A stretch of 23,584 bases of DNA from an uncultured delta proteobacterium (GTDB lineage Bacteria; Myxococcota; Myxococcia; Myxococcales; Anaeromyxobacteraceae): positions 1-23,584 of the forward strand of contig CAWFDF010000006.1 in NCBI GenBank assembly GCA_963814585.1. The letters are read 5' to 3'. Below the pieces are notes generated by a model. The model worked only from the letters and a program-made list of their open reading frames with translations, had not been told where the DNA came from and ran no database searches. The translations under genes and the position numbers were made by a program. Shown in pieces: positions 781 through 20,008 of the stretch (positions are counted from its first letter, which is position 1; every line of letters starts with the position of its first letter).

Positions 781-1175
781 GCCGCCGGCGGTCCGGCCTG
801 GCGCTCGGCCAGGGCGCCGAGCCGCGCCACCTCCGCCCGCAGCAGGGCGCACTCCTGGGCCAGGCGGCGCGTGGTGGCCGCGGTGGACGAGCCGGCGATG
901 GTGATGGCCAGCACGTTGACGCCAAGGTAGAGGAGCCCGGCCCCGAAGACCGCGTTCGACGGGACGTGGATCCCCACCAGCTCCGCGGCCGCGGCCATCA
1001 GGGCCGGGAAGGCCGTGACCGCGATGGCCGCCAGGGTGGTGAGCAGCCAGGCCAGGCTGTCGCGCACCGAGAGCCGCTGCGTCCGGATGAGCTCGATCAC
1101 CCAGGCCAGGAACGAGACCAATACCGCCAGGGAGAGGAGCTGCAGCTCGAGGGGGAGGAAGGACGGTGCGTTCAT
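777..1175 (-). CDS. DUF2304-family small membrane protein (GacJ-like partner of a polyprenol-phosphate glycosyltransferase), 132 aa
   Basis: MNAPSFLPLELQLLSLAVLVSFLAWVIELIRTQRLSVRDSLAWLL...LVGIHVPSNAVF...RRLAQECALL: three hydrophobic segments plus the C-terminal LAQExALL helix typical of DUF2304. ATG at 1175 overlaps the TGA (1172-1174) of the corrected upstream GT2. Confidence 0.8.
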   Translation of the reverse strand: MNAPSFLPLELQLLSLAVLVSFLAWVIELIRTQRLSVRDSLAWLLTTLAAIAVTAFPALMAAAAELVGIHVPSNAVFGAGLLYLGVNVLAITIAGSSTAATTRRLAQECALLRAEVARLGALAERQAGPPAA

Positions 1176-1892
1176 GGCGACGCCTCGGGGGAGCGGACGG
1201 TCAGGCCCCGGACCGGGAGGAAGACCAGGGCCAGCGACACCTTGGCCAGGTAGTAGAGGGAGCGGAGCGCGGTGATCGAGGAGCGTGCCGTGGGCCCGCT
1301 CCCGCATCCGCACCGGCACCTCCACGACGCGCAGGCCGGCCCGGTGGGCCACCGCGATCGACTCGGGTTCCGGGTAGTCGGACGGGTAGGCGCGGGCGAA
1401 GAGCTGGATGGCGGCGCGGTTGGCGGCGCGGAACCCGCTGGTCGGATCGGTGACGCGCACGCCGCACCGCAGGCGCAGGAACCAGGAGAGGTAGCGGATC
1501 CCGACGCGGCGCGCGGCGGTCGAGCGGAAGCCGCCCGGCGCCAGGAAGCGCGAGCCGACGACCAGGTCGGCCTCCCCCCGCCGCAGCGGCCCGAGCAGCG
1601 CCTCGATCTCGGCCGGATCGTGCTGCCCGTCGCCGTCGAGCTGGACGGCGGCGTCCGCGGAGCGGTCCCGGGCCAGCAGGTAGCCGGCCTGGACGGCGCC
1701 GCCGATGCCCAGGTTCACGGGGAGGCGCAGCACCACCGCACCGGACCGGGCGGCCACGTCGGCGGTGGCGTCGCTGCTCCCGTCGTCGACCACGCAGGCG
1801 GTGGCGTCGGGCACCTCCCGGCCCAGCGCCGCCAGCAGGGCGGGGAGGGCGGTGGCCTCGTTGTAGGCGGGGATGACGACGACGGTCTTCAC
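1172..1892 (-). CDS. DPM1/GacI-like GT2 (polyprenol-phosphate sugar synthase), ~239 aa, with a +1 frameshift at 1283-1286
   Basis: GTG start; VIPAYNE, VVDDGSSD, NLGIGGAVQAG, QLDGDGQHDP, DLVVGSRF, DPTSGFRA, DYPEPE motifs. After RERAHG the family-typical tail (SSITALRSLYYLAKVSLALVFL...stop at 1172) lies in another frame; removing one base restores it. Confidence 0.85.
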
Positions 1893-4349: not shown

Positions 4350-5939
4350 ATGATTTCGACAGTCCTGATGCTGGTGCTCACCGCCACGCCCGCCAACGCC
4401 GTGATCGCCCGCGTGAACGGCGAGGCCATCACCGCGGCGGCCGTCACCGCCCGGGCCACCAGCACCCGCACCAGTCCCCAGGTGGCGGCCGATGACCTGA
4501 TCGCCGAGGTGCTCCTCGGCGCCGAGGGAGCCAAGCTGGGCGTGAAGGCGCCGGCGACGGCCGCCCCGGCCATCGAGCTCGCCCGCCGGAACGCCGCCGT
4601 CGAGCGCTACCTGGAGGTCGTGGTCTACCCGGGCGTGCAGGTCCCCGAGGCCGATCTCCGCGAGCGCTTCCACCAGCGCGGCGACCAGGTCCGGCTGCTC
4701 CTGGTGGCCCGCCCCGACGAGGCCCAGGCCAGGGCGACCCTGGCGCGGATCGCCGCGGGCGCCTCCTTCGCGGACGAGGCCGCCACCTCGGTCGACCCGA
4801 CCTCCAAGGCGAAGAAGGGAGATCTCGGCTGGCTGCCTCGCTCGGCGCTCTCCGCGGCCCTGGCCAAGGAGGCCTTCGTCGTGCCCATCGGCAAGGTGCA
4901 GGGCCCGGTCCTCGCCGAGGGCGCCTGGAGCGTCTACCTGGTGCAGGACCGGCGCCTGCCGGACGAGGCGGCCTACGCCCTGGTGAAGGACCGGCTGCGC
5001 GCAGACCTCGAGCCCCAGGCTCGCTCCGCCGCCGCGGAGAAGCACCGGGCGAAGCTCATCGCCGACCTCAAGGGGAAGGTGGACGAAAAGGCCATCGCCG
5101 CCACCGGCGACGGTCTCCAGGCCACGCCAGAGCAGTCCGCCAAGGTGGTGGCCAGCGCCGGCAGCGTCAAGATCACCTACGGCCAGGTGCTCAAGGAGCT
5201 GGGGGGCGGCCACGGCGGCGCCGGTGGACCCGGGCGCGCCTCGCCCGAGGTGAAGGCCACGCTGGCCCAGGACCTGCTCGGACGGGCCGTGCTGGAGCAG
5301 GCCGCCCTGAAGCGCTTCTCGAAGGACCCGGCGGTCCTCGCCGCGGTGGCCCGGGCCGAGCGCGCCGCCGTCGCCGCCACCTACGCCGAGAAGCTGCGGC
5401 GCGAGGCTCCCGGGCCCACCACGGCCGAGGTGGAGGGACGCTACGAGGCCCGCAAGCGCGACTTCATGACCCCCGGTGGACGGCGCTGCTTCCAGCTGGT
5501 CGCTCCGACCGAGGAGGGGGTGAAGAAGCTCGCGGCCCGGGTCGCCGCTGGAGAGGATTTCGCCAAGGTGGCCGCCGACAGCTCGGATCGCCGGAGCGCC
5601 GCCAACGGCGGCGAGGTCGGCTTCATCACCGACGAGGAGATCGGGCGGGTCGAGCGGCCGGATGGCGATCCGGCGCTGGCGGCCGCCGTGGTGGGCACCC
5701 CGCCAGGCCAGCTGAGCAAGCCCGTCAAGACCCGCGCCGGCGTCAGGGTGCTCCGCTGCGAGGCCTACGTCCCTGCCAAGGGGGCCACCCTGGACGAGAT
5801 GCGCCACCGGATCACCATGGAGCTGAAGGGGGAGCGCTCCGTCGCCGCGGTTCGCCAGAGGGCCGCTGCGCTGCGAGAGAAGGCGAGCGTCCAGGTCGAC
5901 GAGGCCGCGCTCACCGGGATGCTCCCACCGAAGAAGTGA
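4350..5939 (+). CDS. Exported PpiC/parvulin-type (SurA/PrsA-like) foldase with two rotamase domains, 529 aa
   Basis: GGAGAG RBS at 4338-4343 favours ATG 4350 over 4305. Short signal peptide, VIARVNGEAIT start, two parvulin cores (GASFADEAATSVDPTSKAKKGDLGW; GEDFAKVAADSSDRRSAANGGEVGF...SKPVKTRAG). Confidence 0.88.
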   Translation: MISTVLMLVLTATPANAVIARVNGEAITAAAVTARATSTRTSPQVAADDLIAEVLLGAEGAKLGVKAPATAAPAIELARRNAAVERYLEVVVYPGVQVPEADLRERFHQRGDQVRLLLVARPDEAQARATLARIAAGASFADEAATSVDPTSKAKKGDLGWLPRSALSAALAKEAFVVPIGKVQGPVLAEGAWSVYLVQDRRLPDEAAYALVKDRLRADLEPQARSAAAEKHRAKLIADLKGKVDEKAIAATGDGLQATPEQSAKVVASAGSVKITYGQVLKELGGGHGGAGGPGRASPEVKATLAQDLLGRAVLEQAALKRFSKDPAVLAAVARAERAAVAATYAEKLRREAPGPTTAEVEGRYEARKRDFMTPGGRRCFQLVAPTEEGVKKLAARVAAGEDFAKVAADSSDRRSAANGGEVGFITDEEIGRVERPDGDPALAAAVVGTPPGQLSKPVKTRAGVRVLRCEAYVPAKGATLDEMRHRITMELKGERSVAAVRQRAAALREKASVQVDEAALTGMLPPKK

Positions 5940-5942
5940 TGC

Positions 5943-5958
5943 TGGGTGATTTCACGCA
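5943..5958. promoter_or_regulatory. Candidate activator site (TGGGTGATTTCACGCA), same family as the 10445-10513 sites
   Basis: Imperfect palindrome. Its reverse complement TGCGTGAAATCACCCA matches TGGGCCAAAACACCCG at 11/16 positions. It starts 88 bp upstream of the -24 GG, exactly as the 10498 site does. Confidence 0.55.
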
Positions 5959-6028
5959 TGGCTGGGGGATATGCCATGATTCTCGATGATGATTCCCTGC
6001 TAAGCACCTGATCGGGCTAGCCCGCCAG

Positions 6029-6045
6029 GTGGCACCACCCATGCT
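6029..6045 (+). promoter_or_regulatory. Sigma54 (-24/-12) promoter
   Basis: GTGGCACCACCCATGCT: TGGCAC-N5-ATGCT, GG 6031-6032, GC 6043-6044, in the intergenic gap before the 42-heme gene. Confidence 0.75.
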
Positions 6046-6146
6046 GTGATCAGCACCGCTCCAGACCCTTCCGACCCCCGCCGGCGGCCTCTCCCCCCCC
6101 CCAGGAGCCGAGCCCGCCGCTGCGAGCAACGAGATCCGAGGCACGA

Positions 6147-9100
6147 ATGTTCGACCGCTCTCCCATGACGCTCCACGCAGGACCGAGGTCCGGCGCTCGC
6201 GGTCCTCACGGCGCCACGCTCCTCGCGCTGGCTGTCGTCGCGGCGGGAGTGCTGGCCCTGGGCGGGTGCTCCACCGGCGCCGGCGCCCGCGGTGGCAGCG
6301 CTGGCGGGTCCGGGCGGAAGGTCGCCGCCAAGGAGTGCGTGGCCTGCCACGCGGCGACGCTGAAGCAGCAGGCCCGCAAGCTCACCCACAAGCCCTTCGC
6401 GGACGACAAGGGGTGCGAGGCCTGCCACCGCCGCCACGGCATCGTCGGCGTCAACGTGCTCCAGAAGGAGGAGCCGGAGCTCTGCTTCGGCTGCCACGAC
6501 AAGCAGAAGAAGGAGTTCGGGCAGGGGGTGGTGCACGAGGCCATCCGCGGGACGGGCAAGGGCAAGTGCACCTCGTGCCACGCGGCCCACTCTTCCGACC
6601 TGCCGAACCTGATGCGGGTCTCGACCAACGAGGCCTGTGCCACCTGCCACAAGAAGGCGCAGCTTCAGGGGGCCAAGGTCCACGCGCCCGCCGCCAAGGA
6701 CTGCGGGACGTGCCACACGCCGCACGCCAGCTCCCAGAAGCTGCTCCTCGTCAAGGAGGAGAAGGCGCTCTGCGGCGGCTGCCACGACGCCGGCGACGCC
6801 AGGATGAAGAAGGCGCACGGTGGCCTCCCGATCTCCGGCGCGAGCTGCGTCCAGTGCCACTCCCCGCACTCCGCCGCCGCGGCCGGGGGGCTGCTCCCGA
6901 GCGTGCACGCGGTCGGGTCGGACTGCGCCGAGTGCCACACCGCCGGCTCGGACAAGGCCAAGCCCTTCGCCGTCAAGAAGGCGGCGCCGGAGCTCTGCTT
7001 CGGCTGCCACGACACCCAGCAAGCCGACCTCAAGAAGAAGGTGGTCCACCCGCCGGCCGAGGGCTGCACCGACTGCCACTCGCCTCACGCCGCCAAGGGG
7101 CCCAAGCTCCTGGTCCAGGGGGTCCGCGAGACCTGTGCCCAGTGCCACGAGCCCATCGCCGCGAAGCTGGCGACCAGGCCCCACGCGCCGGCCCGGGACG
7201 GGAAGTGCGCCGCGTGCCACGCGTCGCACGGCTCGGACAACAAGCGGCTCCTCGTCGCCACCGGCCCGGCGCTCTGCACCGGCTGCCACCAGGCCGCCGC
7301 CGACTGGCTCAAGGCCAAGGTGGTCCACGCCCCGGCCCGCTCCGGCGACTGCGGCGGCTGCCACGATCCGCACGGCTCGCCGAACGCCAAGCTGCTGGTC
7401 AAGGGCGCCGGCGAGCTGTGCTACGGCTGCCACCAGAAGCAGAAGGAGGCCTTCACCGGCGACAACGTCCACCGCCCGGTCCGCGAGGGCCAGTGCGCCG
7501 CCTGCCACCAGCCGCACGGCTCGGCGCAGGCCAAGCTCCTCAACGTCCCGGCCGCGAAGCTGTGCGACGGCTGCCACGCCTTCGACAAGCGCTACGAGAA
7601 GACCAAGCTCCACGCCCCGCTCGCCAGCGGAGGCTGCTCCGCCTGCCACGATCCCCACGTGGCCGGGCAGCCCAAGCTCCTCAAGTCCCCGGTCGCGAGC
7701 CTCTGCGCCGGGTGCCACGAGAAGGTGGCCAAGGGGCTCGACGCCAAGGGGATCGTCTCGACGCACCGGCCGGTCCGCAACGGCGAGTGCGCTGCCTGCC
7801 ACGAGCCACACGGCTCGAAGGACAAGGCCTTCCTGAGGAAGGGGCAGCTCGAGGTCTGCGGCGACTGCCACGGCGAGCTGGTGAAGCGGCTGGCGCGCAA
7901 GGACGCGCCCAGCCACGCCCCGGCCCGGGACGGCGACTGCGACGCCTGCCATGCCGGGCATGCCTCGGCCCAGCCGTCACTGCTCCTCAAGGCCGGGAAG
8001 CAGCTCTGCCTCGAGTGCCACGACGCCAAGGACGCGGCGCTGGTCAAGAGCCACTCCGGCTACAGCATCGAGGGGAGCTCCTGCCTCGGCTGCCATGATC
8101 CGCACTACGGCGACCGGAAGGGACTGGTTCGCCGCGTCGGCCACTCGCCCTTCGTCAACCGGGACTGCGGCTCCTGCCACGTGCCTGCCAAGCCGGGGGG
8201 CAGCGAGCCGAAGACCGTGGCCTCCGGGCGGGCGCTCTGCGAGGTCTGTCACGGCGACACCCGGACCAGCTTCGCCAAGAAGTTCGTCCACACTGCCGTG
8301 AAGCAGGAGCGCTGCGGCGGCTGTCACGCCCCGCACGCTTCCACCTCCGACAAGCTCCTCTCCAGGACCGGCGGGGCCCTCTGCTTCTCGTGCCACGACC
8401 CCAAGGCCTTCCAGAAGAAGGAGATGCACGCCCCGGTCAAGGCCGGCGAGTGCCTCAAGTGCCACGATCCGCACGCCTCCGACGCCAGGGGCGTGCTGGT
8501 CCGGACCGGCAACGAGCTCTGCCTGGGCTGCCACGCCGAGCAGAAGCGTGAGCTGGCGTCGAAGCACGTCCACGCCGCCGTCACCGGCGGGGCCTGCACC
8601 GACTGCCACGATCCGCACGGCTCGCCCTACCCGGCCATGCTGGTCTCGTCGCGCGAGAAGCTCTGCCTCAAGTGCCACGACACCAGGAAGCCGGCCATCC
8701 AGGCTGCACACCAGCGCTTCCCCCTGGCCGGGGTGGACTGCGCCTCCTGCCACAACCCGCACGGCTCCAGCCAGGCCGGGCTGATCCGCTCCAACTCCCA
8801 CCAGGTGTTCAGCGCGTGCGCCCGCTGCCACGCCACCACCGGCGCCAAGCCGCAGGCCCTCCTGGCCCAGAGCCCCGCGCTCTGCTTCCGCTGCCACGGC
8901 GACAAGAAGACCGAGGTCTCCGCCAAGACCGGCGTGCACGCCGCCGCCCAGGGCGACTGCACCGACTGCCACACGCCCCACGCCTCCAACGAGAAGGGGC
9001 TGGTCAAGGGCAACAAGGAGCGAGCCGTCTGCCTCGGCTGCCACGACGGGATCAAGGGCGACCTGGAGCGGTCCAGGTCGATCCACCCGGTCAAGGCCGC

Positions 9101-9419
9101 CGGCGGTCGCTGCACCGCCTGCCACCGCCCGCACTCCTCGAGCCAGGTCCGCCTGCTCAGCCAGCCGGCCGGCGAGCTCTGCCAGACCTGCCACAAGACC
9201 CACGCCCAGTTTACCCACCCCATCGGCAAGGGCGTGACCGACCCCAACACCGGCAAGGACATGAACTGCCTCTCCTGCCACGGTCCCCACGGGACCAGCC
9301 AGGATCACATCCTGCTCGGCAACCCGGCCCGCGGGCTCTGCATCCGGTGCCACGACTCCGACTCCGAGGACATGAAGCAGATGCGCAAGCCGAAGCCCGC
9401 AGGGCCCGCGGGAAGCTAG
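6147..9419 (+). CDS. Giant multiheme c-type cytochrome lipoprotein, 42 CXXCH motifs (paired-CXXCH / MtrA-DmsE-like repeats), 1090 aa
   Basis: Manual count of 42 CXXCH from CVACH to CIRCH. Repeating H-x-P-x4-5-CxxCHxPH-x-S...LL...LCxxCH unit. Lipobox LGG-C41 (TGC at 6267). GAGG RBS before ATG 6147 (ATG 6165 is an alternative start). Confidence 0.95.
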   Translation: MFDRSPMTLHAGPRSGARGPHGATLLALAVVAAGVLALGGCSTGAGARGGSAGGSGRKVAAKECVACHAATLKQQARKLTHKPFADDKGCEACHRRHGIVGVNVLQKEEPELCFGCHDKQKKEFGQGVVHEAIRGTGKGKCTSCHAAHSSDLPNLMRVSTNEACATCHKKAQLQGAKVHAPAAKDCGTCHTPHASSQKLLLVKEEKALCGGCHDAGDARMKKAHGGLPISGASCVQCHSPHSAAAAGGLLPSVHAVGSDCAECHTAGSDKAKPFAVKKAAPELCFGCHDTQQADLKKKVVHPPAEGCTDCHSPHAAKGPKLLVQGVRETCAQCHEPIAAKLATRPHAPARDGKCAACHASHGSDNKRLLVATGPALCTGCHQAAADWLKAKVVHAPARSGDCGGCHDPHGSPNAKLLVKGAGELCYGCHQKQKEAFTGDNVHRPVREGQCAACHQPHGSAQAKLLNVPAAKLCDGCHAFDKRYEKTKLHAPLASGGCSACHDPHVAGQPKLLKSPVASLCAGCHEKVAKGLDAKGIVSTHRPVRNGECAACHEPHGSKDKAFLRKGQLEVCGDCHGELVKRLARKDAPSHAPARDGDCDACHAGHASAQPSLLLKAGKQLCLECHDAKDAALVKSHSGYSIEGSSCLGCHDPHYGDRKGLVRRVGHSPFVNRDCGSCHVPAKPGGSEPKTVASGRALCEVCHGDTRTSFAKKFVHTAVKQERCGGCHAPHASTSDKLLSRTGGALCFSCHDPKAFQKKEMHAPVKAGECLKCHDPHASDARGVLVRTGNELCLGCHAEQKRELASKHVHAAVTGGACTDCHDPHGSPYPAMLVSSREKLCLKCHDTRKPAIQAAHQRFPLAGVDCASCHNPHGSSQAGLIRSNSHQVFSACARCHATTGAKPQALLAQSPALCFRCHGDKKTEVSAKTGVHAAAQGDCTDCHTPHASNEKGLVKGNKERAVCLGCHDGIKGDLERSRSIHPVKAAGGRCTACHRPHSSSQVRLLSQPAGELCQTCHKTHAQFTHPIGKGVTDPNTGKDMNCLSCHGPHGTSQDHILLGNPARGLCIRCHDSDSEDMKQMRKPKPAGPAGS

Positions 9420-9421
9420 GC

Positions 9422-10399
9422 GTGCGCCCGGGCGCGGCCATCTCCGTCGGCCTCCTCCTGGCGGTGCTGGCGGCGCCTGGTCGCGCCGGCGAGGAGGAGA
9501 CCACCTCACCGCTGGCGGTGGAGGACCTGGCCCCCGTCGCCATCACCTACGGCCACTTCTACGAGGGCGCCTTCCAGGGGCCGACCGGGGTGACCTGCGA
9601 CGCCCGCACCGGCGAGATGTACGTGGCCGACTCGGGCCGCGGACTGGTCGGCATCTTCGACCGGCGAGGCGCTCCGCTCTTCACGTTCGGAGACCCTGGC
9701 CGGCTCTCCAGCCCCGTCAAGGCCCTCGTCGATCGGGAAGGGAAGATCCTGGTCCTCGACGGCGTCGACCGGCGTCGGATCAGGCGTTACAGCTACCGCG
9801 GCGAGTTCCTGTCCTTCCTGGAGCTCGAGGGCATGGAGGCCAAGCCCAAGCTGGCCATCACCGCCATCGGGCTCGACGGCCAGGGGAACCTCTTCGTCGG
9901 CGACTCGGGCCACGGCGAGGTGCTGGCGTTCGACCCGAAGGGGCGGCTCCTGTTCCGCTTCGGCAACAAGGGCAAGGGCGCGAACGAGTTCGAGGCGATC
10001 ATGGGGATCGCCGTCACCGCCGAGCGCATCTACGTCTCGGACAGCGCGGGGCTCGGCGTCCAGGTCTTCGACCGGCGCGGCCGCTACCTGCGAGGCTGGG
10101 GGCGCCACGAGGCCGGGCGCGAGAACGTCTCCTTCCCGCACGGCATCAGCGTGGACGGGAAGGGCCGGATCGCCCTGGTCGACTCCCTGCGTCACGAGAT
10201 CAAGCTCTACGCTCCGGATGGCAAGCTGATCGGGCAATACGGTGGGGCGGGGAAGCGTCCGGGCGACGTCCTCTACCCGGCCGACGCCTCCTTCGACGGC
10301 ACGGGGAGGCTCTGCGTGGCCGATCGCGGCAACAACCGAGTGCAGGTCCTCGAGCCGCGCGAGCCGGCCCCGAAGCAGGCCCCGAAGCCGGCGCCGTGA
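9422..10399 (+). CDS. Exported NHL-repeat six-bladed beta-propeller, 325 aa
   Basis: GTG 2 nt after the upstream stop, in the frame of ORF 8672..10399. Signal peptide (VRPGAAISVGLLLAVLAAPGRA) then NHL repeats: FQGPTGV...MYVADSG, LSSPVKALVD, LFVGDSG, IYVSDS, FPHGISVD...LVDS, YPADASFD...VADRGNNRVQV. Confidence 0.9.
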   Translation: MRPGAAISVGLLLAVLAAPGRAGEEETTSPLAVEDLAPVAITYGHFYEGAFQGPTGVTCDARTGEMYVADSGRGLVGIFDRRGAPLFTFGDPGRLSSPVKALVDREGKILVLDGVDRRRIRRYSYRGEFLSFLELEGMEAKPKLAITAIGLDGQGNLFVGDSGHGEVLAFDPKGRLLFRFGNKGKGANEFEAIMGIAVTAERIYVSDSAGLGVQVFDRRGRYLRGWGRHEAGRENVSFPHGISVDGKGRIALVDSLRHEIKLYAPDGKLIGQYGGAGKRPGDVLYPADASFDGTGRLCVADRGNNRVQVLEPREPAPKQAPKPAP

Positions 10400-10444
10400 T
10401 CCGCGCCGGGGCCGAGGTCCCGGAACCCAAGTCAAATTTCTCGC

Positions 10445-10513
10445 TGGGCCAAAACACCCGGTGCTGGGGCACAAGACCCGCCCCTGGCCTGGCCCGATGG
10501 GCCAAAGCACCCG
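10445..10513 (+). promoter_or_regulatory. Three 16-bp TGGG-N8-CCCG repeats, candidate upstream activating sequences
   Basis: 10445 TGGGCCAAAACACCCG, 10465 TGGGGCACAAGACCCG, 10498 TGGGCCAAAGCACCCG; centred about -158, -138 and -105 from the predicted sigma54 start (~10611). Confidence 0.65.
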
Positions 10514-10583
10514 AAGTCGAACCGGTGTGCGGATCTGTCGTTCAGTTTCTCCAGCGATTCCTAGTAGGTCCGAGTCGGTCCGG

Positions 10584-10600
10584 TTGGCACTCCCGATGCT
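10584..10600 (+). promoter_or_regulatory. Sigma54 (-24/-12) promoter of the OmcS-like gene
   Basis: TTGGCACTCCCGATGCT: near-consensus YTGGCAC-N5-(T)TGCW; GG 10586-10587, GC 10598-10599. Confidence 0.8.
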
Positions 10601-10731
10601 AAGCACCCACATCACGAACTCACCAGATGGTCGACGTGGGACCGGCGGTGCTCGCCGGGAAAGCAGCAGGCAGGGAAGTCCGCCGCAGCCAATCGCGCAG
10701 TGAACCAGACGCCAACCGGAGTCCAACCACC

Positions 10732-11847
10732 ATGAAGAAGCTCGCCTTCATCGCCCTCGCGGCCTTCGCCTTCACGGCGACCGCTGCCGAGTACCATACC
10801 TACACGACGTTGATCTGCAGCGACTGCCACACCATGCACGCCCAGCGGACGCACAGCTTCGGGTCAGAGACCCTCAACGCCAACGACACCGTCGTCTTCG
10901 GCGCTGGCGACACCGGTGGCCACGAGGCCCTGCTGCTCGGCGCCGACGCCAACCGGACCTGCCTGGTCTGCCACAACGGCGCCCGCGGCCCGGACGTCTT
11001 CGGCACGAACTCCAGCTCGTACGCCCTCCAGACCCGCTCCGCCGGCGCCCTGAACGCCGCCACCGGCTACGCCGTCGCCAACGAGGACGGCTACCTCCCC
11101 TACATGGGTCACTCGCTCGGCTCGATGGACATGCCCCCGGGCCGCAACCCCGCCATCTACGCCTACCCCGGCGACATGCAGTGCGTCCGCTGCCACACCG
11201 CCCACGGCCGGCCCAGCTACCGCAACCTGCGTGACCGCGGCAGCGACGCCGTGGTCCGCGAGCCGAGCTACGTGGTCCTGCCGAGCGCCCAGCTGACCAT
11301 GAACTTCGGCTACGACGTCAACCTGTTCGGCAACGACTACAGCGCCGACAGCGTCGTCTACACCTCGGCCGTCGGCTCCACGAACGGCCAGAACAAGATG
11401 ACCGCCTTCTGCGGCATGTGCCACGGCAACTACCACGACGACATCGTCGGCGGCACGGCCCCGAACGACTACTTCCGCCGGCACCCGACCGACCAGATCA
11501 CCCTCACCGCGCGGCAGATCTTCACGGCCGAGACCGCGAACGCCACCAACGTGTCGGTCAAGCTGACCTACATCCAGGGCGCGGCCCTCAACCGCGGCGC
11601 CGAGGGCGGCGTCAACTTCGCCTCCGACCCGACCGCGACGGCGACCGTCGGCTGCCTCACCTGCCACAAGGCCCACGGCAACCTGAACTCCTTCGGCCTC
11701 TTCTTCCCGGGCAACTCGGTCGGGCCGACCGGCGCGAACGTCCACCAGGGTGATGCCAACAAGGAGCAGGGTGGCGGCACGTCGATCCGCAACCTCTGCA
11801 ACACCTGCCACAGCCAGGGCCGTACGCCCGTGGCGGCTTTCCAGTAA
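10732..11847 (+). CDS. omcS: OmcS-family hexaheme c-type cytochrome, probable major nanowire subunit, 371 aa
   Basis: GGAG RBS and Sec signal MKKLAFIALAAFAFTATAA. Six CXXCH. The motif chain follows Geobacter OmcS as I recall it: YHx6CSDCHTMH, LLLG..CLVCH, GH, PPG, CVRCHTAHG..YRNL, M..FCGMCH...H, RHP, V.CLTCHKAH, R.LCNTCH. The symbol denotes family membership, not proven orthology. Confidence 0.85.
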   Translation: MKKLAFIALAAFAFTATAAEYHTYTTLICSDCHTMHAQRTHSFGSETLNANDTVVFGAGDTGGHEALLLGADANRTCLVCHNGARGPDVFGTNSSSYALQTRSAGALNAATGYAVANEDGYLPYMGHSLGSMDMPPGRNPAIYAYPGDMQCVRCHTAHGRPSYRNLRDRGSDAVVREPSYVVLPSAQLTMNFGYDVNLFGNDYSADSVVYTSAVGSTNGQNKMTAFCGMCHGNYHDDIVGGTAPNDYFRRHPTDQITLTARQIFTAETANATNVSVKLTYIQGAALNRGAEGGVNFASDPTATATVGCLTCHKAHGNLNSFGLFFPGNSVGPTGANVHQGDANKEQGGGTSIRNLCNTCHSQGRTPVAAFQ

Positions 11848-11864
11848 CGAGTTCGAGTAGTCCG

Positions 11865-11901
11865 GCGTGGGGAGGGCGAGAGCCCTCCCCACGCTCCTTT
11901 T
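11865..11901 (+). terminator. Intrinsic terminator or mRNA-stabilising hairpin
   Basis: Perfect 13-bp stem GCGTGGGGAGGGC / GCCCTCCCCACGC with a GAGA (GNRA) loop, followed by TCCTTTT, 17 nt after the TAA stop. Confidence 0.8.
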
Positions 11902-11922
11902 CGTGGCATACTGCGAGGCGCC

Positions 11923-12849
11923 GTGTCGACCAGGAAGCCATCAAGGCCCGGGGGAGCGCACCAAGCGGGCTGGCCGCACGCCGCACTGATCCTCATCGCG
12001 CCGCTCCTCCTCGGGGGCTCCTGGCACCAGTACGACAAGCTCGTTTGCAGCGACTGCCACACCATGCACAACAGCGCCGCCGGACAGGCGATGCGCTACG
12101 ACCTCGACGACACCCCGGCCCAGTACCTGCTCCGCAGCAGCAGCCCCGACACGCTCTGCCTGCACTGCCACGGCGCGATGCCGGTGCAGGGCGCGCCCGG
12201 TGTCACGCTCCAGGAGGGCGGGATGCCGCCCTTCGACTCGGCCGCCGGGTTCTTCTCCACCTCCGGCAGCGGGGGACAGCCGGTCATCGGGCTGGGCCAC
12301 GTCATCGGCGTGGCGCCCACCGAGGACCCCGCGACCTACTTCTCCAGCACGGCCATGACGCTCGGCTGCCTGAGCTGCCACGACCAGCACGGCAGCGCCC
12401 TCTACCGCAACCTCCGCCCCGGCCCCTCGGGGCGCGGCGGCAGCGCCTCGCCGCTGGTCACCGAGCGGGTGCTGGCCGGCCAGGGGGCGGGGAGCACCGT
12501 CTACGGCGCCGCCAACGTCCGCTACCAGTCGGGCTTCACCGAGTGGTGCCTCGACTGCCACGACCAGTACAGCCATTACCACTTGGACGTCACCTTCGAG
12601 GCCCGTCCGGATCTCTTCTCCTACTACTCCGCCAACGCCCTCTCGACGACCGGGGCGCAGCTGCCTCGGCCGCGCGTCCAGACGCCCATCCTGGAGGCAG
12701 TGCCGGACCCGACCAACCAGCTCTTCTGCCTCTCCTGCCACAAGGCCCACGGCAGCGGGGCCCCCCGCGGCGTCGTCTACCCCGACCCCGCCGACTCCAG
12801 CTCGCTCTGCGCCCGCTGCCACGTGCCGCCGGCGGCGGTGGCGCCATGA
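11923..12849 (+). CDS. Second OmcS-family hexaheme cytochrome (shorter paralogue), 308 aa
   Basis: GTG start with GAGG RBS and hydrophobic signal. WHx6CSDCHTMHNS, YLLR..CLHCH, GH, CLSCHDQHG..YRNL, FTEWCLDCH, CLSCHKAHGS, LCARCH: six CXXCH in the same order as the upstream gene. Confidence 0.85.
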   Translation: MSTRKPSRPGGAHQAGWPHAALILIAPLLLGGSWHQYDKLVCSDCHTMHNSAAGQAMRYDLDDTPAQYLLRSSSPDTLCLHCHGAMPVQGAPGVTLQEGGMPPFDSAAGFFSTSGSGGQPVIGLGHVIGVAPTEDPATYFSSTAMTLGCLSCHDQHGSALYRNLRPGPSGRGGSASPLVTERVLAGQGAGSTVYGAANVRYQSGFTEWCLDCHDQYSHYHLDVTFEARPDLFSYYSANALSTTGAQLPRPRVQTPILEAVPDPTNQLFCLSCHKAHGSGAPRGVVYPDPADSSSLCARCHVPPAAVAP

Positions 12850-14290
12850 GTTGGATCCCGCCTGGAAGGCGCCGCCTGCTCCGCGGCGCCGTCGCCGCGG
12901 TCCTGCTGACGGCGCTGCCGAATGCCGCCTCCGCCGGTCTCGAGGCCTTCCGCACCTCCCGCCACGGCGACCCGGTCAGCGGGCCGCTGCGCGATCGCAA
13001 GTACCGGCCAGGGACCTGCCTGCAGTGCCACGGCAGCTCCCGGGACTCCTCCGTCGGTGGCTCGGCCAACCGGATGGCGCTCTTCGCGGCCAACGACGAC
13101 CAGCTCTGCCTCACCTGCCACAAGGCAGCCCGCGGCTCCTTCCCGGGTCCGTCGCTGGTGACCCGCTCGACGCACAGCCGGTCGTCGCTGGTGGTCTGGC
13201 CCGGGCCGGTTCCGAAGCAGCGCCCCCGGGGCGACGGAGGACTCTGCCTCAACTGCCATGATCCGCACGGGCGGACCGACGCGCTCGGCCCATCCCGGCC
13301 ATGCTGGTCGCGCGCGGCGACGACCTGTGCCTCGCCTGCCACCGCGGTGGCGGGGGTGGTTCCGACATCTCCTCCGAGCTGAACGAGATCAGCCGGCACC
13401 CGCGCCTCGGCGGCGGTGCCGGGATGGGCGCCACGCTCCAGGGGACGGTCTGCGTCGATTGCCACAATCCGCACCTGGCACGGCGCGACTCCACCGGCAC
13501 CCAAGTCGGCACCGCCGGCCTGATGGACGGAGTCCGCCGGGTCAGGCCGGTCAACGGCGCGCCCGGCTCCCTGCCGCGGCTCGTCCCGGTGGGGCCGGAG
13601 GACCGCTCCCCGACCCAGGAGTACGAGGTCTGCTTCCGCTGCCACGCCGGCGCGACGGGCGCCGCCGCCGGGCTAGCGGCGCCGACGGGCGCCGGGCTGC
13701 TGCCGCCCACGGGCGCCGGGCTGGTGCCGGCGACGGGCGCGAGCGCCGCGGTGGCCCGCGGCGAGGTCGCCTCGGTCCTCAACCCGGCCAACGCCTCCTA
13801 CCACCCGGTCGAGGCCCCGGGGCGGGACGGCGCCATCGACCAGGCCGCCTTCGTCAGCGGCTGGCGCTCCGGCCAGATGGTCACCTGCAGCGACTGCCAC
13901 GGCTCCGGCAGTGGCCGCGTCAGGGGGCCGCACGGCTCGAGCTTCCCGAAACTGTTGAAGAAGCGATACCCGGTCGCGGCGCCAACCGCCCAGCCGGAAC
14001 CCTCCGACCTCTGCCTCGACTGCCACGCCTGGGGCGCCTATGCCGCCGCCGGTGCGGGGAGGGTCGCCACCGCGAGCCGCTACGGCGGCCACGCCTCGCA
14101 CGCCGGCCAGGGCCTCTCCTGCCACGCCTGCCACGAGCCCCACGGCAGCCCGAAGCTCCCCTCGCTCCTGGCGATTCGCTCGCCGGGCCTGGTCACCTAC
14201 CAGCGCGACGCTTCGGGCGGCACCTGCACCGTGAGCTGCCACGCCAAGACCCCGCCCACCGCCAGCTACCGGCTGGCCTACCCGCGGTAG
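12846..14290 (+). CDS. Multiheme cytochrome c (9 CXXCH + 1 CX3CH), ~481 aa, frameshifted at 13289-13291
   Basis: ATG 12846 overlaps the upstream TGA. Signal peptide, CLQCH, CLTCH, CLNCHDPHG in the first frame; CLACH, CVDCH, CFRCH, CSDCH, CLDCH, CHACH, CTVSCH in the frame of ORF 13301..14290. Adding one C gives continuous ...DALGPIPAMLVARGDDLCLACH. Confidence 0.85.
13655..13741 (+). repeat. In-frame tandem repeat (ACGGGCGC... at 13655, 13685, 13709, 13733; ~24-bp unit, TGAGLxxx)
   Basis: Peptide TGAAAGLAAP-TGAGLLPP-TGAGLVPA-TGA between CFRCH and NPANASYHPV. Confidence 0.7.
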
Positions 14291-14305
14291 GCCAGCTCCG
14301 AACCG

Positions 14306-16465
14306 ATGGGATCCCAGGCTACCCACCGCCAGCGCGCCGCCCTGATCGCCTGCCTGCTCGCGCTCGCCCCGGGCGCGGCGGAGGCCGCCGTGGACGGCCT
14401 GGGGGCCACCGCCCAGCTGCAGTACAACTGGTTCGAGACCGGAGACAACTCCTCCGACGCGATCAACCAGCGCTACTACCTGTTCTTCGACAAGCCGCTC
14501 TCAGGCCTCCTCCAGTACCGGGCCAAGCTCGGCTACATCGAGGATCACGCCAACATCTACACGGAGGGCATGCGCCCGGGGCAGCGGGCGGTCCAGCCGG
14601 GGCTGCAGCTCGACTACAAGCTCGGCTGGCTGACGGTGAACGGGCTCTACGAGTACCAATGGATCCAGCGGTTCTCCAGGGACGTGGAGGCGGTGACCGC
14701 CACCAACCACCGGGGCGACACCACGGCGAACATCCAGGCCACCGAGAACCTCCGCTTCATCGGCCATTTCGAGTGGCTGGGCCAGCGGCAGGCGAGCACC
14801 GGCGTGCGGCTCGACCGGTACCGGGCCGAGGCCAACGCCACCTGGCAGCGCGGGGTCAACTCCGTCTCGCTCGGCCCGGTCCTCGACGTCTACGACAACT
14901 CGGCCACCGGCTACCACCGGACCACGCTCTCCCCGACCCTCAAGGCGACCTACGGCGGCACCTGGCTCGGCGGGACGCTCAGCGTCTCGCTGAACGCCGC
15001 CGGGGCCTACAGCCAGATCGACGAATCGGCCCGCGGGACCAGCCCGGTCAACGAGCCGCGCGAGATCGAGCCGCTCGCCGCGCTCTACGTGGTGAGCGGC
15101 ACGCCCGCCGACACCACCGCCACGCCCTCCTCCTCCATCCCCGCGCTGATCGACGGAAACTACGTCGCCAGCACGGGGATCTCGCTGGGGCCAGACGGCG
15201 TCTCGTCGCAGAACCTGGCGCTCGACATGGGCCGGGTGATCACCCTCGACGAGTTCCGCATCTACGTCCGTGACCCCGCCGGCAACCCGCTCCAGGAGGG
15301 CGGCCCGGTGACCTGGACGGTCTACACCAGCCTCGATGGGCTGCGCTGGGTCCCCACCGCCTCCGCCGGGGCCTCCTTCGACCTGGGGCTGAGCGCCTGG
15401 ACCATCGCCTTCACGCCGACCGAGGCGCGCTACTTCAAGGTGGTCAACTTCGGGGTCAACCAGCTCCCGACCGTGGTGACCGAGATGGAGATCTACGAGC
15501 ACCGGGTCTTCCTCCCCGACGAGCACCGGACCTCCTGGACCGCGACCCAGCTGGTGGGGGGAGGCCTGACGCTCCAGCTCGCGAGCAAGCTCTCGGCCAC
15601 CGTGTCCGGCAGCCTCGGCGCCAACCAGCAGCGGCCAGCCGGGCGCGCGCCCTACGACTCCCTCACCGACGTGATCATCCTCGGGCTGACCGCGGGCCCC
15701 TGGGCGGACCTCACCTTCTCGGGCTCTTACAGCCACAACGACTTCGCCAGGACCGCCTCCCCCACGCTGGCCGGCGACATCGGCTCGCTCGGCGTGACCT
15801 TCGCGCCGAGCCCGCTCCTGTCCACCGGCCTGACGGCCTCGGCCCAGCGGCAGGACTACGGCGACTTCCGGCTCGAGTCACAGGGGCTGTCACTCACCGT
15901 CGGCCTGAACCCCATGAGGAAGCTCAACCTCGGCGGCTACGCCACGGTGAACCGGTCGGTGAACTACCCGTACAGGCTGGAGCAGACCGTCATGTCGTAT
16001 GGCGGCAGCGCCCTCCTCCTCCTGCACCGGGCCTTCGACGTCACGCTGGCCGCCTCGGTGCAGCAGATCCTCTCGGGAGAGCAGAACCTGATCCCGGTCG
16101 GGGTTCCGATCGTCCCCATGGCCATCCAGCGCAGCTACGCCGCGACGCTGCGCTACCACCCGAACGCCCAGCTCGATCTGAGCGCCCAGTTCGGGTATAC
16201 CGAGACCGGAGTGGCCGATGGCCCCGTCCAGAACTACCGCGTCTACTGGATCCCCTTCCCGAGCGGCGCCTTCAGCCTCGTCATCAACTACCAGCAGAAC
16301 ATCGAGCCGATCTCGGGCTCGAGCCTGAGCCGACTCTCCCTCATGCCGGGGTGGAACATCAGCAAGCACGTGGCCCTCACCGGGACGGCCTTCCGCCAGT
16401 GGGGCACGGGCCCGTTCACGGTCCCGCTCGAGACCTACTACCTGGCACTGACCTTCTTCCTATGA
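14306..16465 (+). CDS. Outer-membrane beta-barrel protein with an inserted F5/8 type C (discoidin-like) domain, 719 aa
   Basis: Signal peptide ending AEA. Long runs of alternating amphipathic, Tyr/Gly/Ser-rich strands; C-terminal beta-signal-like YYLALTFFL. Central LIDGN...LALDMG...FRIY...WTVYTSLDGLRW...ARYFKVV...VTEMEIY segment (~15146-15499). Confidence 0.8.
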   Translation: MGSQATHRQRAALIACLLALAPGAAEAAVDGLGATAQLQYNWFETGDNSSDAINQRYYLFFDKPLSGLLQYRAKLGYIEDHANIYTEGMRPGQRAVQPGLQLDYKLGWLTVNGLYEYQWIQRFSRDVEAVTATNHRGDTTANIQATENLRFIGHFEWLGQRQASTGVRLDRYRAEANATWQRGVNSVSLGPVLDVYDNSATGYHRTTLSPTLKATYGGTWLGGTLSVSLNAAGAYSQIDESARGTSPVNEPREIEPLAALYVVSGTPADTTATPSSSIPALIDGNYVASTGISLGPDGVSSQNLALDMGRVITLDEFRIYVRDPAGNPLQEGGPVTWTVYTSLDGLRWVPTASAGASFDLGLSAWTIAFTPTEARYFKVVNFGVNQLPTVVTEMEIYEHRVFLPDEHRTSWTATQLVGGGLTLQLASKLSATVSGSLGANQQRPAGRAPYDSLTDVIILGLTAGPWADLTFSGSYSHNDFARTASPTLAGDIGSLGVTFAPSPLLSTGLTASAQRQDYGDFRLESQGLSLTVGLNPMRKLNLGGYATVNRSVNYPYRLEQTVMSYGGSALLLLHRAFDVTLAASVQQILSGEQNLIPVGVPIVPMAIQRSYAATLRYHPNAQLDLSAQFGYTETGVADGPVQNYRVYWIPFPSGAFSLVINYQQNIEPISGSSLSRLSLMPGWNISKHVALTGTAFRQWGTGPFTVPLETYYLALTFFL

Positions 16466-17046
16466 TCTACCCCGCGCAGCGCCGGTCTCGACTCCCCTGC
16501 GGCCGAGCCGCCTGGCCCCTCGCCCTGGTGCTCGCCCTGGGGTGCGCGGCGCAGCAGCCGTACGTCAGCGAGCGCGTCGACTTCTCGCTGATCCGGTCGG
16601 TCGCCATCCTCCCCTTCGACGACGCGGCGGGCGAGAAGCTGGGATCGGAGCGGGTCCAGCGGATCTTCATGACCGAGCTGCTGGCCCTCGGCGTCTTCGA
16701 TCCGGTCGAGCCCGGGCAGGTGGTCCGGGCGGTCCGCACCGAGCGGATCGATCCCGCCGCGTTCACGCCGGACGACATCAAGAAGCTGGGGAAGCTGCTG
16801 GGCGTCCAGGGCGTCTTCGTCGGCTCGATCATCGAGTTCTCCGAGGGGAGGTCCGCCTCGCAGTCGGCGCAGGTGACGCTGCAGATCCGGCTGCTCGACG
16901 TGGAGTCGGGGAAGACGGTCTGGTCCACCAGCCGGAGCGGGACCGGCGCGACGGTGACCGGGCGGCTCTTCGGGATGGGGTCGCTCACCGCCTCCGAGGT
17001 CGCGCGGCAGCTGATCCGCGAGGAGCTCGAGCGCCTCGTCCGGTGA
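16462..17046 (+). CDS. CsgG/PelC/GNA1162-like outer-membrane lipoprotein, 194 aa
   Basis: ATG 16462 overlaps the barrel stop (ATGA). Lipobox LALG-C; VAILPF, LGKLLGVQGVFVGSI, VTLQIRLLDVESGKTVWS motifs of the CsgG/TolB-N/PelC fold. Confidence 0.8.
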   Translation: MIYPAQRRSRLPCGRAAWPLALVLALGCAAQQPYVSERVDFSLIRSVAILPFDDAAGEKLGSERVQRIFMTELLALGVFDPVEPGQVVRAVRTERIDPAAFTPDDIKKLGKLLGVQGVFVGSIIEFSEGRSASQSAQVTLQIRLLDVESGKTVWSTSRSGTGATVTGRLFGMGSLTASEVARQLIREELERLVR

Positions 17047-17049
17047 CCC

Positions 17050-18111
17050 ATGAGCCTCCGGGCGGTCGTCTCCCTCCTGCTCCTCGCCGCGCCCCTGGCC
17101 GCCCCTGCCGCCGAGGGGCGCCTGGTGCTGCTCCCGTTCGACGGCCAGGTCGGCCCCACCTTCCGCGGGGCGGTCCTGCAGACCGTCATGACGGCCCTGG
17201 CCAGGCGGGGCTACGTGGTGGTGGGAGGGGAGGTGGCGGAGCGCTTCCTGGAGGAGCGCCGCATCCGCTACCTCGACTCCCTGATCCCCGAGGACATCCG
17301 CGAGCTCGCCGAGGAGTTCCAGGCCGATGGCGTGGTGGTGGGGGCCTTCCTCGCCATCCCGGATGGGCCGGAGCCGGAGGCCGCCCTCGCCGCCCGGCTG
17401 ATCCGGGCGGACGGTCGGATGGCCTGGACCGCCACCGTTGGACTGTCGTCGCTCGGGGAGCCAGGCGTCGGCGCGGTCGGCGAAATCAAGCGCACTCTGC
17501 GTCCGGCCGAGCAGCTCACCGCGGCCGCCTCGCAGCTGTTCCAGGGCTTCCCAGAGAAGGGTGCGCCGCTCCCCGTCCGGATTGCCGGGACCACGGCCGG
17601 GCCGGCCCCCAGGACCTACCGGGCGCCCGGCTTCTTCCGAGAACGCCGGCGGGTCTGCCTGCTCCCGTTCGCCAACGCCACCGCCTCCCAGGCCGCGCCT
17701 CGCGCGGTGGAGGCGATCCTGGCCCGGGCGCTCGGGGAGCGGAACCAGTTCTACGTGGTGGAGCCGGCCGAGCTGCGCCGCGCCTTCGTGACCGAGGGGA
17801 TCTGGAGCCCGCGCTGGCTGACCCTGGACCACTTCCGCCGGCTCAGCGCCCGCGTTGGCGGTTGCGCCTTCCTGAGCGGGGACATCCTGACGTACGGTAG
17901 GACCACTGACGCGGCCGGCGGGAGCACCCCCGCCGTGGAGATCTACGTCAGCCTGGTCGAGCCGCCGGCCGGGCGGACCGTCTGGTCGGCGCTCCACGTG
18001 CGGCGGGGCCATGAGTACGAGCACCTGCTCGGCCTGGGCGCGCTCCAGACCAGGTTCGAGGTGGGCGAGCAGGTCGTGCAGGAGCTGGTCAAGGGGCTCT
18101 TCGCCCCGTGA
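17050..18111 (+). CDS. Exported protein with two tandem CsgG/PelC-like domains, 353 aa
   Basis: Signal peptide. Domain 1: LVLLPFD...ADGVVVG...ARLIRADGRMAW. Domain 2: VCLLPFAN...FLSGDILTY...SLVEPPAGRTVWS. Confidence 0.75.
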   Translation: MSLRAVVSLLLLAAPLAAPAAEGRLVLLPFDGQVGPTFRGAVLQTVMTALARRGYVVVGGEVAERFLEERRIRYLDSLIPEDIRELAEEFQADGVVVGAFLAIPDGPEPEAALAARLIRADGRMAWTATVGLSSLGEPGVGAVGEIKRTLRPAEQLTAAASQLFQGFPEKGAPLPVRIAGTTAGPAPRTYRAPGFFRERRRVCLLPFANATASQAAPRAVEAILARALGERNQFYVVEPAELRRAFVTEGIWSPRWLTLDHFRRLSARVGGCAFLSGDILTYGRTTDAAGGSTPAVEIYVSLVEPPAGRTVWSALHVRRGHEYEHLLGLGALQTRFEVGEQVVQELVKGLFAP

Positions 18112-18139
18112 GAAGGTCATGAGACCGAAGGGAAGCCAC

Positions 18140-20008
18140 ATGAAGAAGCTGCTCCTCATCGCCGCGGCGGCCGGGCTCTGCTCCGGCTGCGCCGCGCCGC
18201 GCTACCTCGCCAAGGTCAACGGTGAGGAGATCACCGGCGCCGACATGCGCCGCGAGTTCGGCAAGCGCCACCGGTCCATGGAGAGGTACCTGGCCACCGA
18301 GCCCGAGGTGCGCAAGGTCCTCAGCTCGGTCATCGACCGGAAGCTCTTCCTCCAGGAGGCCCGCCGCGCCGGCCTCCAGGACGACCCGGCCCTCCTCGAG
18401 GTGATCCAGGGTGAGCGCGAGCGCAAGCTCGTCGAGACCCTGGTCCGGCGCGAGGTCGACGACCCGGCCCAGCCGACCGAGGCGGAGGTGGCCGCGGCCT
18501 ACAAGCTGATGGAGCAAGGGGGCCTGGCGAGGGAGGTGGTCACGGCCACCCGCGCCGAGGCGGAGGAGGTGCGGACCCGGGCCCTCGCCGGCGACGACTT
18601 CGAGGCGCTGGCGCGGGAGCGCTCCATCGCCCGGAGCCGCCTCAACGGCGGGCTGCTGGCGCTCCGCTTCGGCGATGCGGAGGTGGCGCGCGAGGAGGCC
18701 GGGCGCGCCCTGCGCGAGGGGGACATCTCCCCGGTCTTCGAGATGAGGCAAGGCTGGGCGGTCCTCAAGCTGGAGGAGCGGAAGATCGTGGTCCCGCCGG
18801 ACCTGGCGGTCGTGCAGGCGAAGATCTCGGCCATCCTCAAGCGGCGCAAGGTGGAGGTGCTCGATCGGCAGCTCATCGCGGCCCTGCGGGCCAAGTACTC
18901 CGCACAGGTGGCGCCCTGCGACTTCTCGCTGGCCTCGCTGGAGAAGGCGCGCACCACCACGGTCGAGACCGTCTGCGCCACCTGGACCGGCGGCTCGTAC
19001 ACGCTGTCGCAGCTGGCGGCCCGGCTGCCGCTGGACCGGCTCCGCGCTGCCCCACCGGAACGGTACGACGCCGAGGTCGAGCTGAGGGTCGGCGACGCGG
19101 TGGCGGAGCGGCTGCTCCTGGCCGAGGCCATCGCCCGCGGCCTCGAGAAGGATCCGGAGGTGGTCGAGCCGGTCCAGGCGCTCGAGGAGAAGCTCCTGGT
19201 CGAGCTCTACCTGGAGCGCTACGTCACGCTCGAGGTGACGGTCAGCGACGCCGAGGTGGAGGCCGCCTACAAGGCGCAGAAGGCCGAGCTGGTCGTGCCT
19301 GAGTCGCGCCTCATCGCGCAGATCGAGGTGGCCAGCGCCGAGGCCGCCGCCGCCGCGCAGCAGCGCCTCGGGGAGGGGGAGCGCTTCGATGCGGTCGCCG
19401 GGGAGCTCTCAACCAACGTCGAGCAGGCCCAGCGTGGTGGGGTGGTCGGGTGGAAGACGCGAAAGGAGGTGTCCGACACGTTCGCCTCCGTGTTCGCCGC
19501 GAGGCAAGGTGCGGTGGTGGGCCCGATCGCGGCCGGGGGCCGCTTCTACCTCGTCAAGGTCATGGAGATCCGGCCGGAGACGCCGCTCGAGCGGACCGAG
19601 GCGGAGGCCAAGGTCCGGGAGACGCTGCTGACCGCCCGCCGCTTCGAGCGCTTCGAGCGCTTCCTCGACCAGCTCAGGAGGGAGTCCGAGATCGAGGTGA
19701 GCGACGCAGGCATCAAGCGCTACCTGGAGGAGAACCCGGCCCCGGCGGTGACGCCACCGCCCGCGCCAAGCGCCGGCCAAGGTGGTCATGCCGGCATGGG
19801 CTCGATGCCCGGCGACCTGCCGCCGGTCGGCATGCCCGGGGGGATGCCTGGTGGCCACGGTGGGCCACCGCCGGGCGGAATGCCGGGAGGGCACGGGGGT
19901 CCTCCACCGGGCGCGAAGTCGCCCACGCCGGGCGCCACGCCGCCGGCTGCGACGTCGCCAGGTGCTGCGCCGCCGGGCCCGGCGACGCCCAGGCCAAGCA
20001 CGCCCTGA
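18140..20008 (+). CDS. PpiC/parvulin-type foldase lipoprotein with two rotamase domains and a Gly/Pro/Met/His tail, 622 aa
   Basis: MKKLLLIAAAAGLCSG-C lipobox (ATG 18119 is an alternative start). LAKVNGEEIT; GDDFEALARERS...NGG; GERFDAVAGELS...GGVVGW...GPI...FYLVKV. Confidence 0.87.
   Translation: MKKLLLIAAAAGLCSGCAAPRYLAKVNGEEITGADMRREFGKRHRSMERYLATEPEVRKVLSSVIDRKLFLQEARRAGLQDDPALLEVIQGERERKLVETLVRREVDDPAQPTEAEVAAAYKLMEQGGLAREVVTATRAEAEEVRTRALAGDDFEALARERSIARSRLNGGLLALRFGDAEVAREEAGRALREGDISPVFEMRQGWAVLKLEERKIVVPPDLAVVQAKISAILKRRKVEVLDRQLIAALRAKYSAQVAPCDFSLASLEKARTTTVETVCATWTGGSYTLSQLAARLPLDRLRAAPPERYDAEVELRVGDAVAERLLLAEAIARGLEKDPEVVEPVQALEEKLLVELYLERYVTLEVTVSDAEVEAAYKAQKAELVVPESRLIAQIEVASAEAAAAAQQRLGEGERFDAVAGELSTNVEQAQRGGVVGWKTRKEVSDTFASVFAARQGAVVGPIAAGGRFYLVKVMEIRPETPLERTEAEAKVRETLLTARRFERFERFLDQLRRESEIEVSDAGIKRYLEENPAPAVTPPPAPSAGQGGHAGMGSMPGDLPPVGMPGGMPGGHGGPPPGGMPGGHGGPPPGAKSPTPGATPPAATSPGAAPPGPATPRPSTP
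19838..19909 (+). repeat. 2 x 36-bp in-frame repeat encoding GGMPGGHGGPPP
   Basis: Identical 12-aa units; 9 of 12 codons differ only at the third position. Confidence 0.8.

Follow-up and report, generated by a model that had tools for sequence, protein, structure and literature searches.

A divergent, rearranged relative of the Geobacter osc cluster in a high-GC myxobacterial genome

The window considered here, 23,584 nucleotides in length, makes up all of contig C6 in assembly G000 (73% GC, 18 contigs, 91.7% complete), the host of which belongs to the same family as Anaeromyxobacter dehalogenans (G019). Between positions 4350 and 20008 it carries ten plus-strand genes which encode, in order, a foldase, a 42-heme cytochrome, an NHL β-propeller, two hexaheme cytochromes resembling OmcS (S1 and S2), a decaheme cytochrome (D), a predicted outer-membrane β-barrel, two proteins of the LpoB/CsgG type and a second foldase. 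An earlier note on this DNA had described ten co-oriented genes in a non-Geobacter-like, high-GC genome, and both points hold; the tight spacing or ATGA overlaps that it reported apply to two overlapping junctions and to four with gaps of 2-15 nt, but not to the remaining three, where 207, 332 and 75 nt separate the genes. The co-oriented run extends beyond 20008, with the gene for a membrane protein beginning 6 nt downstream. Judged from its sequence, the locus is a divergent, rearranged relative of the omcS-companion (osc) cluster of Geobacter sulfurreducens, and represents a new variant rather than a new kind of system.

Gene content and its Geobacter counterparts

The osc cluster (GSU2505-GSU2493) is attributed to Shen et al. 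2025 (Cell Chem Biol 32:239) in PMC13194489, PMC12977616 and PMC13712944. The first of these names oscI and oscJ and, citing Shen et al. 2025, assigns folding to OscH, secretion to OscE, OscF and OscG, and morphology to OscD. The G. sulfurreducens locus of genome G057, with a hexaheme identical to the chain of 6EF8, served as the reference, and the osc letter names were given to genes by gene order. Shared by the two clusters are OmcS-like hexahemes, an NHL protein, a barrel of about 720 residues (OscE) followed, in matching order, by two proteins of the LpoB/CsgG fold (OscF and OscG) and then by a peptidyl-prolyl isomerase (PPIase; OscH), and the 26- and 16-heme cytochromes OscI and OscJ, which are encoded by split genes in Geobacter and are fused and moved upstream in the window. 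The accessory genes thus match gene for gene, in keeping with the earlier note's view of an OmcS-related system that brings its own accessory functions. The window differs further in that it has a single NHL gene where Geobacter has two, carries two PPIases, and places S2 and the decaheme before the barrel, and the 1035-residue spermine-synthase-domain protein of G057 has no tblastn match in G000. Because OscD, a YVTN/YNCE-like propeller of the eight-gene block in Geobacter, is not among its genes and is an optional member in this branch (found by profile in 11 of the 77 related loci), the cluster is, as far as sequence comparison goes, a variant and not a plain member of the Geobacter form. 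Its distinctive traits relative to known clusters are the module of S2 and the decaheme, the lack of any OscD or OscB found, its regulation and its allelic diversity; no paper on this variant was found among the open-licence papers searched.

The 719-residue barrel candidate (14306-16465), which bears an inserted F5/8 type C domain (Pfam F5_F8), matches a 729-residue protein of G057 by blastp (E 2e-9), and when an iterated profile is started from Geobacter-type barrels, that of the closest relative, L001, is recovered at E 1e-176. The window barrel has no Pfam barrel match; in the ESM Atlas, the closest clusters to which a Pfam family is assigned are those of outer-membrane barrels (lead-level scores, 0.76-0.77). 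The OscF-like lipoprotein that follows (16462-17046) matches a 199-residue lipoprotein of G057 (E 8e-28) as well as Pfam CsgG (E 1.7e-7) and LpoB, with no matches in a search of the PDB. The OscG-like protein (17050-18111) matches both a 392-residue protein (E 1e-10) and the 199-residue lipoprotein (E 3e-11) of G057, its only Pfam match being GNA1162-like and below cut-off (E 4e-5). The earlier description of two CsgG-like proteins is therefore apt for the first, the second being OscG-like by blastp. Next in order, the OscH-like foldase of the PpiC/SurA type (18119-20008; lipoprotein-type N-terminus; Pfam Rotamase and SurA_N) aligns with the 578-residue PPIase of G057 over 535 columns (E 4e-15). 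The other PpiC/SurA-type foldase, at the head of the run (4350-5939), has two rotamase domains (Pfam Rotamase_2, E 1e-22) and appears to be a distant OscH-like paralogue, with a weak blastp match to the same PPIase (E 4e-4). The NHL propeller (9422-10399; GTG start; Pfam NHL, E 3e-21) matches both NHL proteins encoded at the flanks of the Geobacter cluster (E 1e-17 and 9e-15), and its gene directly precedes the OmcS-like gene in 60 of the 77 loci.

The 42-heme cytochrome (6147-9419; 42 CxxCH motifs) is, by alignment, a colinear fusion of the osc 26-heme (OscI) and 16-heme (OscJ) proteins: its residues 15-682 match the 26-heme protein of G069 at 37% identity and residues 692-1070 its 16-heme protein at 38%, and blastp returns the same 26 + 16 pattern against the G057 pair. 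As such a fusion is present in 35 of the 77 loci, it is a common form in this branch and not the novelty that had been proposed. The lipoprotein status also suggested for this protein has a narrower basis, with a putative LGGC lipobox read by eye here and in L121, and none seen by eye in 36 of the 37 42-heme homologues listed. In the G. sulfurreducens reference itself, the 16-heme gene that follows the 26-heme gene (L132:2192-3529) reads as frameshifted, with 10 + 5 motifs.

The hexaheme S1 (10732-11847; 371 residues with its signal peptide), the likely major filament subunit, has six CxxCH motifs in the order of OmcS, and its six non-motif (distal) His residues align with those of OmcS (6EF8/6NEF). 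Both profile comparison and the predicted fold agree in assigning it the OmcS fold, as the earlier note had anticipated for the hexahemes, but its identity to OmcS is low, at about 23%, and its loops are shorter. S2 (from about 11923 to 12849; about 308 residues, the start being uncertain), a likely minor subunit, matches 6EF8 by phmmer (E 4.7e-7). Compared with the 407 mature residues of OmcS both are short, a feature put forward as new that turns out to be the norm, with 79 of 92 homologues in the S1 branch having fewer than 400 residues. In a 61-row quick tree, S1 and S2 fall outside the 13-row OmcS/OmcT/OscC clade (Shimodaira-Hasegawa-like approximate likelihood ratio test, SH-aLRT, 100) and are thus not strict OmcS orthologues; S2 forms its own clade of 9 rows (SH-aLRT 99). 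Spare His residues in S2 or D were considered as a mark of a filament terminator and rejected, since the two His that follow heme 4 in S2 are also present in OmcS, and the additional His in the first motif of D is found in just 55 of its 117 homologues and is missing from the window D.

The decaheme gene (12846-14290) is frameshifted near 13288, where the window is one base short in a C-run relative to the C16 contig of the same assembly, splitting D into frames of 3 and 6 CxxCH motifs. On C16 it is a single frame of 481 residues with 9 CxxCH motifs and a terminal CxxxCH, an arrangement kept in 113 of 117 aligned homologues, and the frameshift is likely an assembly error; no short-read contig spans the site. 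The cytochrome of about ten hemes described earlier is accordingly found intact on C16, although not as one open frame in the window. D has no counterpart in the Geobacter osc cluster and accompanies S2 in seven of the eight S2-bearing loci. A search of the PDB with its profile did not match OmcS, and the suggestion that D might be an OmcS hexaheme lengthened at its C-terminus by four hemes is not supported, its OmcS-like stretch mapping to the middle and C-terminal hemes in profile and structure alignments. Nor is D a strict replacement of OscD, both being found together in 6 of the 77 loci. A distant D-like domain (E 1e-42 to 1e-64) lies inside frames of 480-2400 residues in many genomes of the family, e.g. 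G003:C478 and G133:C7, and in loci L008-L071 (Krumholzibacteria, Latescibacterota and some Eisenbacteria) an unassigned six-motif cytochrome of about 400 residues stands where D would be, with the OmcS-like gene on one side and a shorter barrel of about 560 residues on the other.

Distribution, strain variation and candidate regulation

A scan of GTDB genomes returned 304 relatives of S1, the best 80 of which gave the 77 loci (cut at 10 kb or at contig ends) and come mostly from Acidobacteriota, Eisenbacteria, Krumholzibacteria, Latescibacterota, Armatimonadota and Planctomycetota. An NHL gene is present in 63 of these loci, a lipoprotein in 62, any 26-, 16- or 42-heme gene in 59, the barrel in 55, D in 30, a PPIase in 21 and S2 in 8, such that accessory genes accompany OmcS-like genes across phyla. 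Within the host family the S1 type is unevenly spread (found at E <1e-50 in 3 of 41 sampled relatives, G000 included), and D reaches E <1e-100 in 8 of 92 genomes, with 17 candidates scored per genome. A. dehalogenans, in which OmcS homologues have already been reported (PMC10954620), and other members of the family have clusters of the same gene classes, but these keep the Geobacter order, the split 26- and 16-heme genes and OscD, whereas the window does not. Together with the common 42-heme fusion and the usual shortness of the subunits, the homologues on record remove most of what had been suggested as new. The window barrel groups with those of L001 and G023, sister to 13 Acidobacteriota barrels and apart from the Geobacter/A. 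dehalogenans type, and a single clade for the seven barrels of the family is rejected by the approximately unbiased test (p 1.7e-67; 20-row quick tree, the group having been named after the first tree). This placement would fit either horizontal exchange or old paralogy, with no direction assigned.

The locus also occurs on contigs C16 (9939-33488; 91.0% identity) and C1 (87.7%) of the same bin. Identity among the versions is 83-90% in the core, and the left flank of C6 converges to 98% with C16. Because both short contigs lie wholly within the C16 span, with almost no unique flank, and other contig ends of the assembly overlap at 86-99%, the three are probably strain alleles of a variable island. 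True paralogues in one cell, encoding antigenically different filaments, would agree with a C6-C16 core identity that is low for one population, with a marker contamination of only 2.06% and with the two osc clusters of G018 in the same family; this is nonetheless quite unlikely, given the nesting of C6 and C1 inside C16, the convergence at the left end of C6, the overlaps of other contig ends, and the many single-base indels, which together look like long-read haplotype bubbles. At the amino-acid level, C6 and C16 differ most in S1 (77% identity), the barrel (79%), D (80%) and the second lipoprotein (82%), compared with 93-97% in the 42-heme cytochrome. The ratio of non-synonymous to synonymous substitution rates (dN/dS) for S1 is 0.71 versus about 0.2; as it lies below 1, positive selection on S1 was rejected, although long-read errors and a high G+C content at third codon positions limit the estimate. 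Surface cytochromes and the omcS region have already been reported to diverge strongly (10.1101/2025.11.06.686851, PMC3495685).

Two candidate promoters divide the run. The pattern TGGCAC-N5-WTGC, used as the sigma-54 -24/-12 consensus, occurs twice in the window against 0.05 expected, and none of 100 shuffles contained two matches. Both sites are intergenic and on the coding strand, one before the 42-heme gene (6030-6044) and one before S1 (10585-10599). The former keeps its elements in C16 and C1 with a different spacer; the latter is identical in both, with a variant at a like place in L001, where no sigma-54-like site was seen before the 42-heme gene. Three 19-nt direct repeats (10442-10513) precede the S1 site and are conserved in all three contig versions, and two boxes (5941-5979), 20 nt apart, loosely resemble them in reverse orientation (at most 4 mismatches of 14); by their sequence and position, the repeats and boxes are candidate upstream activator sites. 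No sigma-54 activator gene was found among the window proteins scanned, while G057 has one just upstream of its cluster. Downstream of S1 lies a 14-pair hairpin with a short T tail (11864-11895), terminator-like or mRNA-stabilising, the stem of which is conserved in C16 and has one mismatch in C1, with a weaker tail in both; the count of terminators in the window (5, with 4.0 expected) is not in itself enriched. Searches of the window returned no sigma-70 promoters and no Rfam matches. In one RNA library, contigs span 10632-11004 and 11181-11809 with an identity of about 92-95%, which fits transcription in a relative but can neither rank the genes nor exclude DNA.

A proposed route to a heme filament

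Taken together, these features make it probable that this osc-type cluster folds, exports and assembles an extracellular, conductive heme filament of S1, with S2 and D as minor components and the 42-heme cytochrome as a periplasmic relay. One sigma-54 promoter would drive the unit of 42-heme and NHL genes and another S1, and read-through past S1 would be lowered by the hairpin that follows it, such that S1 is abundant and S2, D, the barrel, the lipoproteins and the foldase are minor products. The apoproteins would be exported by Sec, acquire their hemes through a maturation system whose genes lie elsewhere, and be held by the two PpiC/SurA foldases, and S1 would then exit via the barrel and its two CsgG/LpoB-fold partners. 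OmcS is a head-to-tail polymer in which one heme is ligated by the neighbouring subunit (PMC6584659), and by analogy S1 may polymerise likewise, by way of a conserved His that completes a heme in the following subunit. The weakest steps are the last two, that S2 and D may be minor cytochromes located at the barrel or at an end of the filament, and that the 42-heme chain might carry electrons across the periplasm to the export site.

Several observations weigh against this proposal. Direct phmmer comparison of S1 with the PDB gives no match at E 0.01, a profile being needed, and Foldseek returns E 3.4e-3 with a template modelling (TM) score of 0.38. OscD, by gene order a 498-residue propeller and proposed to shape the wire (PMC13194489), has no tblastn match at E 1e-4 in the 91.7% complete assembly, and a tblastn search of G000 likewise found no homologue of OscB. 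Of 75 loci, only 4 have the strict sigma-54 motif ahead of their S1 relative, and together with its absence before the 42-heme gene of L001 this makes the pattern local to the lineage. PpcA-E are reported to charge OmcS directly (PMC10954620), a result that, along with the apparently frameshifted 16-heme gene of G. sulfurreducens, weakens an essential feeder role for the 42-heme chain, and the need of OmcS wires for Fe(III) reduction is itself disputed (PMC13194489).

The decaheme invites a different reading, in which the locus encodes a porin-cytochrome conduit and not a secretion system, D threading the barrel as MtrA does in MtrB, being fed by the 42-heme chain and handing electrons on to S1 and S2, which would sit at the surface as monomers or short oligomers. 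MtrA (6R2Q) is the top fold match of D, albeit a weak one, and as in MtrAB a decaheme gene adjoins a large barrel gene; the window barrel, however, is OscE-like and occurs also without D, and MtrAB loci are not known to include lipoproteins, foldases or OmcS-like genes. On balance a conduit of this kind is unlikely. Less likely still is that S1 is exported as a non-filamentous surface or matrix cytochrome, with osc an older hexaheme exporter from which only the Geobacter OmcS lineage made wires, in spite of such export having been raised for GSU2501-type clusters (PMC12977616) and of the low identity of S1 to OmcS and its place in another clade.

Returning to filament assembly as the preferred reading, the start, end and charging of filaments are described as open questions (PMC13712944), and D and S2 offer concrete candidates. 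A bolder version, possible but doubtful, holds that this wide non-Geobacter branch has an all-heme, hard-wired conduit, in which a single 42-heme chain spans the periplasm and D and S2 form a dedicated cytochrome adaptor, placed at the barrel or at the end of the filament. This would be the anchor or tip that work on nanowires has sought and not found, and strains of one population would exchange divergent alleles of the surface parts. Systems of this kind have been published before, and the gain is incremental: OmcS-type filament machinery would extend to a second lineage within the Anaeromyxobacter family, in common with Acidobacteriota, Eisenbacteria, Krumholzibacteria, Latescibacterota and Armatimonadota, phyla not usually counted as nanowire makers.

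Neighbouring genes

Upstream of the first foldase, positions 2039-4174 encode a 711-residue lipoprotein with fibronectin type III repeats, which is excluded from the system because the C1 version lacks the 5' half of the gene and none was seen in the 77 related loci. Downstream, the membrane protein with C-terminal tetratricopeptide repeats (TPRs; 20015-21895, plus strand) matches only TPR families in Pfam and has a homologue in 7 of the 77 loci; by a tentative resemblance it may be a protein glycosyltransferase, and a PDB search with its membrane part gave no matches. It is followed by a LIC_10190 family membrane protein (21960-23582), above the NCBIfam cut-off. Genes for glycosyltransferases of families 2 and 4, a PMT-like protein and a DegT aminotransferase flank the locus (window 1-1892, minus strand; L134:3064-11832), similar to the glycosylation clusters that adjoin omcE (PMC13712944), and going by these genes S1 may be glycosylated. 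About 9 kb downstream of the locus on C16 (L135:12197-15674) lie genes for a molybdopterin oxidoreductase, a 4Fe-4S subunit and an ethylbenzene-dehydrogenase-like cytochrome. The genome holds 55 frames with at least three CxxCH motifs, other large ones being C14:170276-179632, C14:232122-235967 and C8:540103-544569, with 58, 29 and 28 motifs, respectively.

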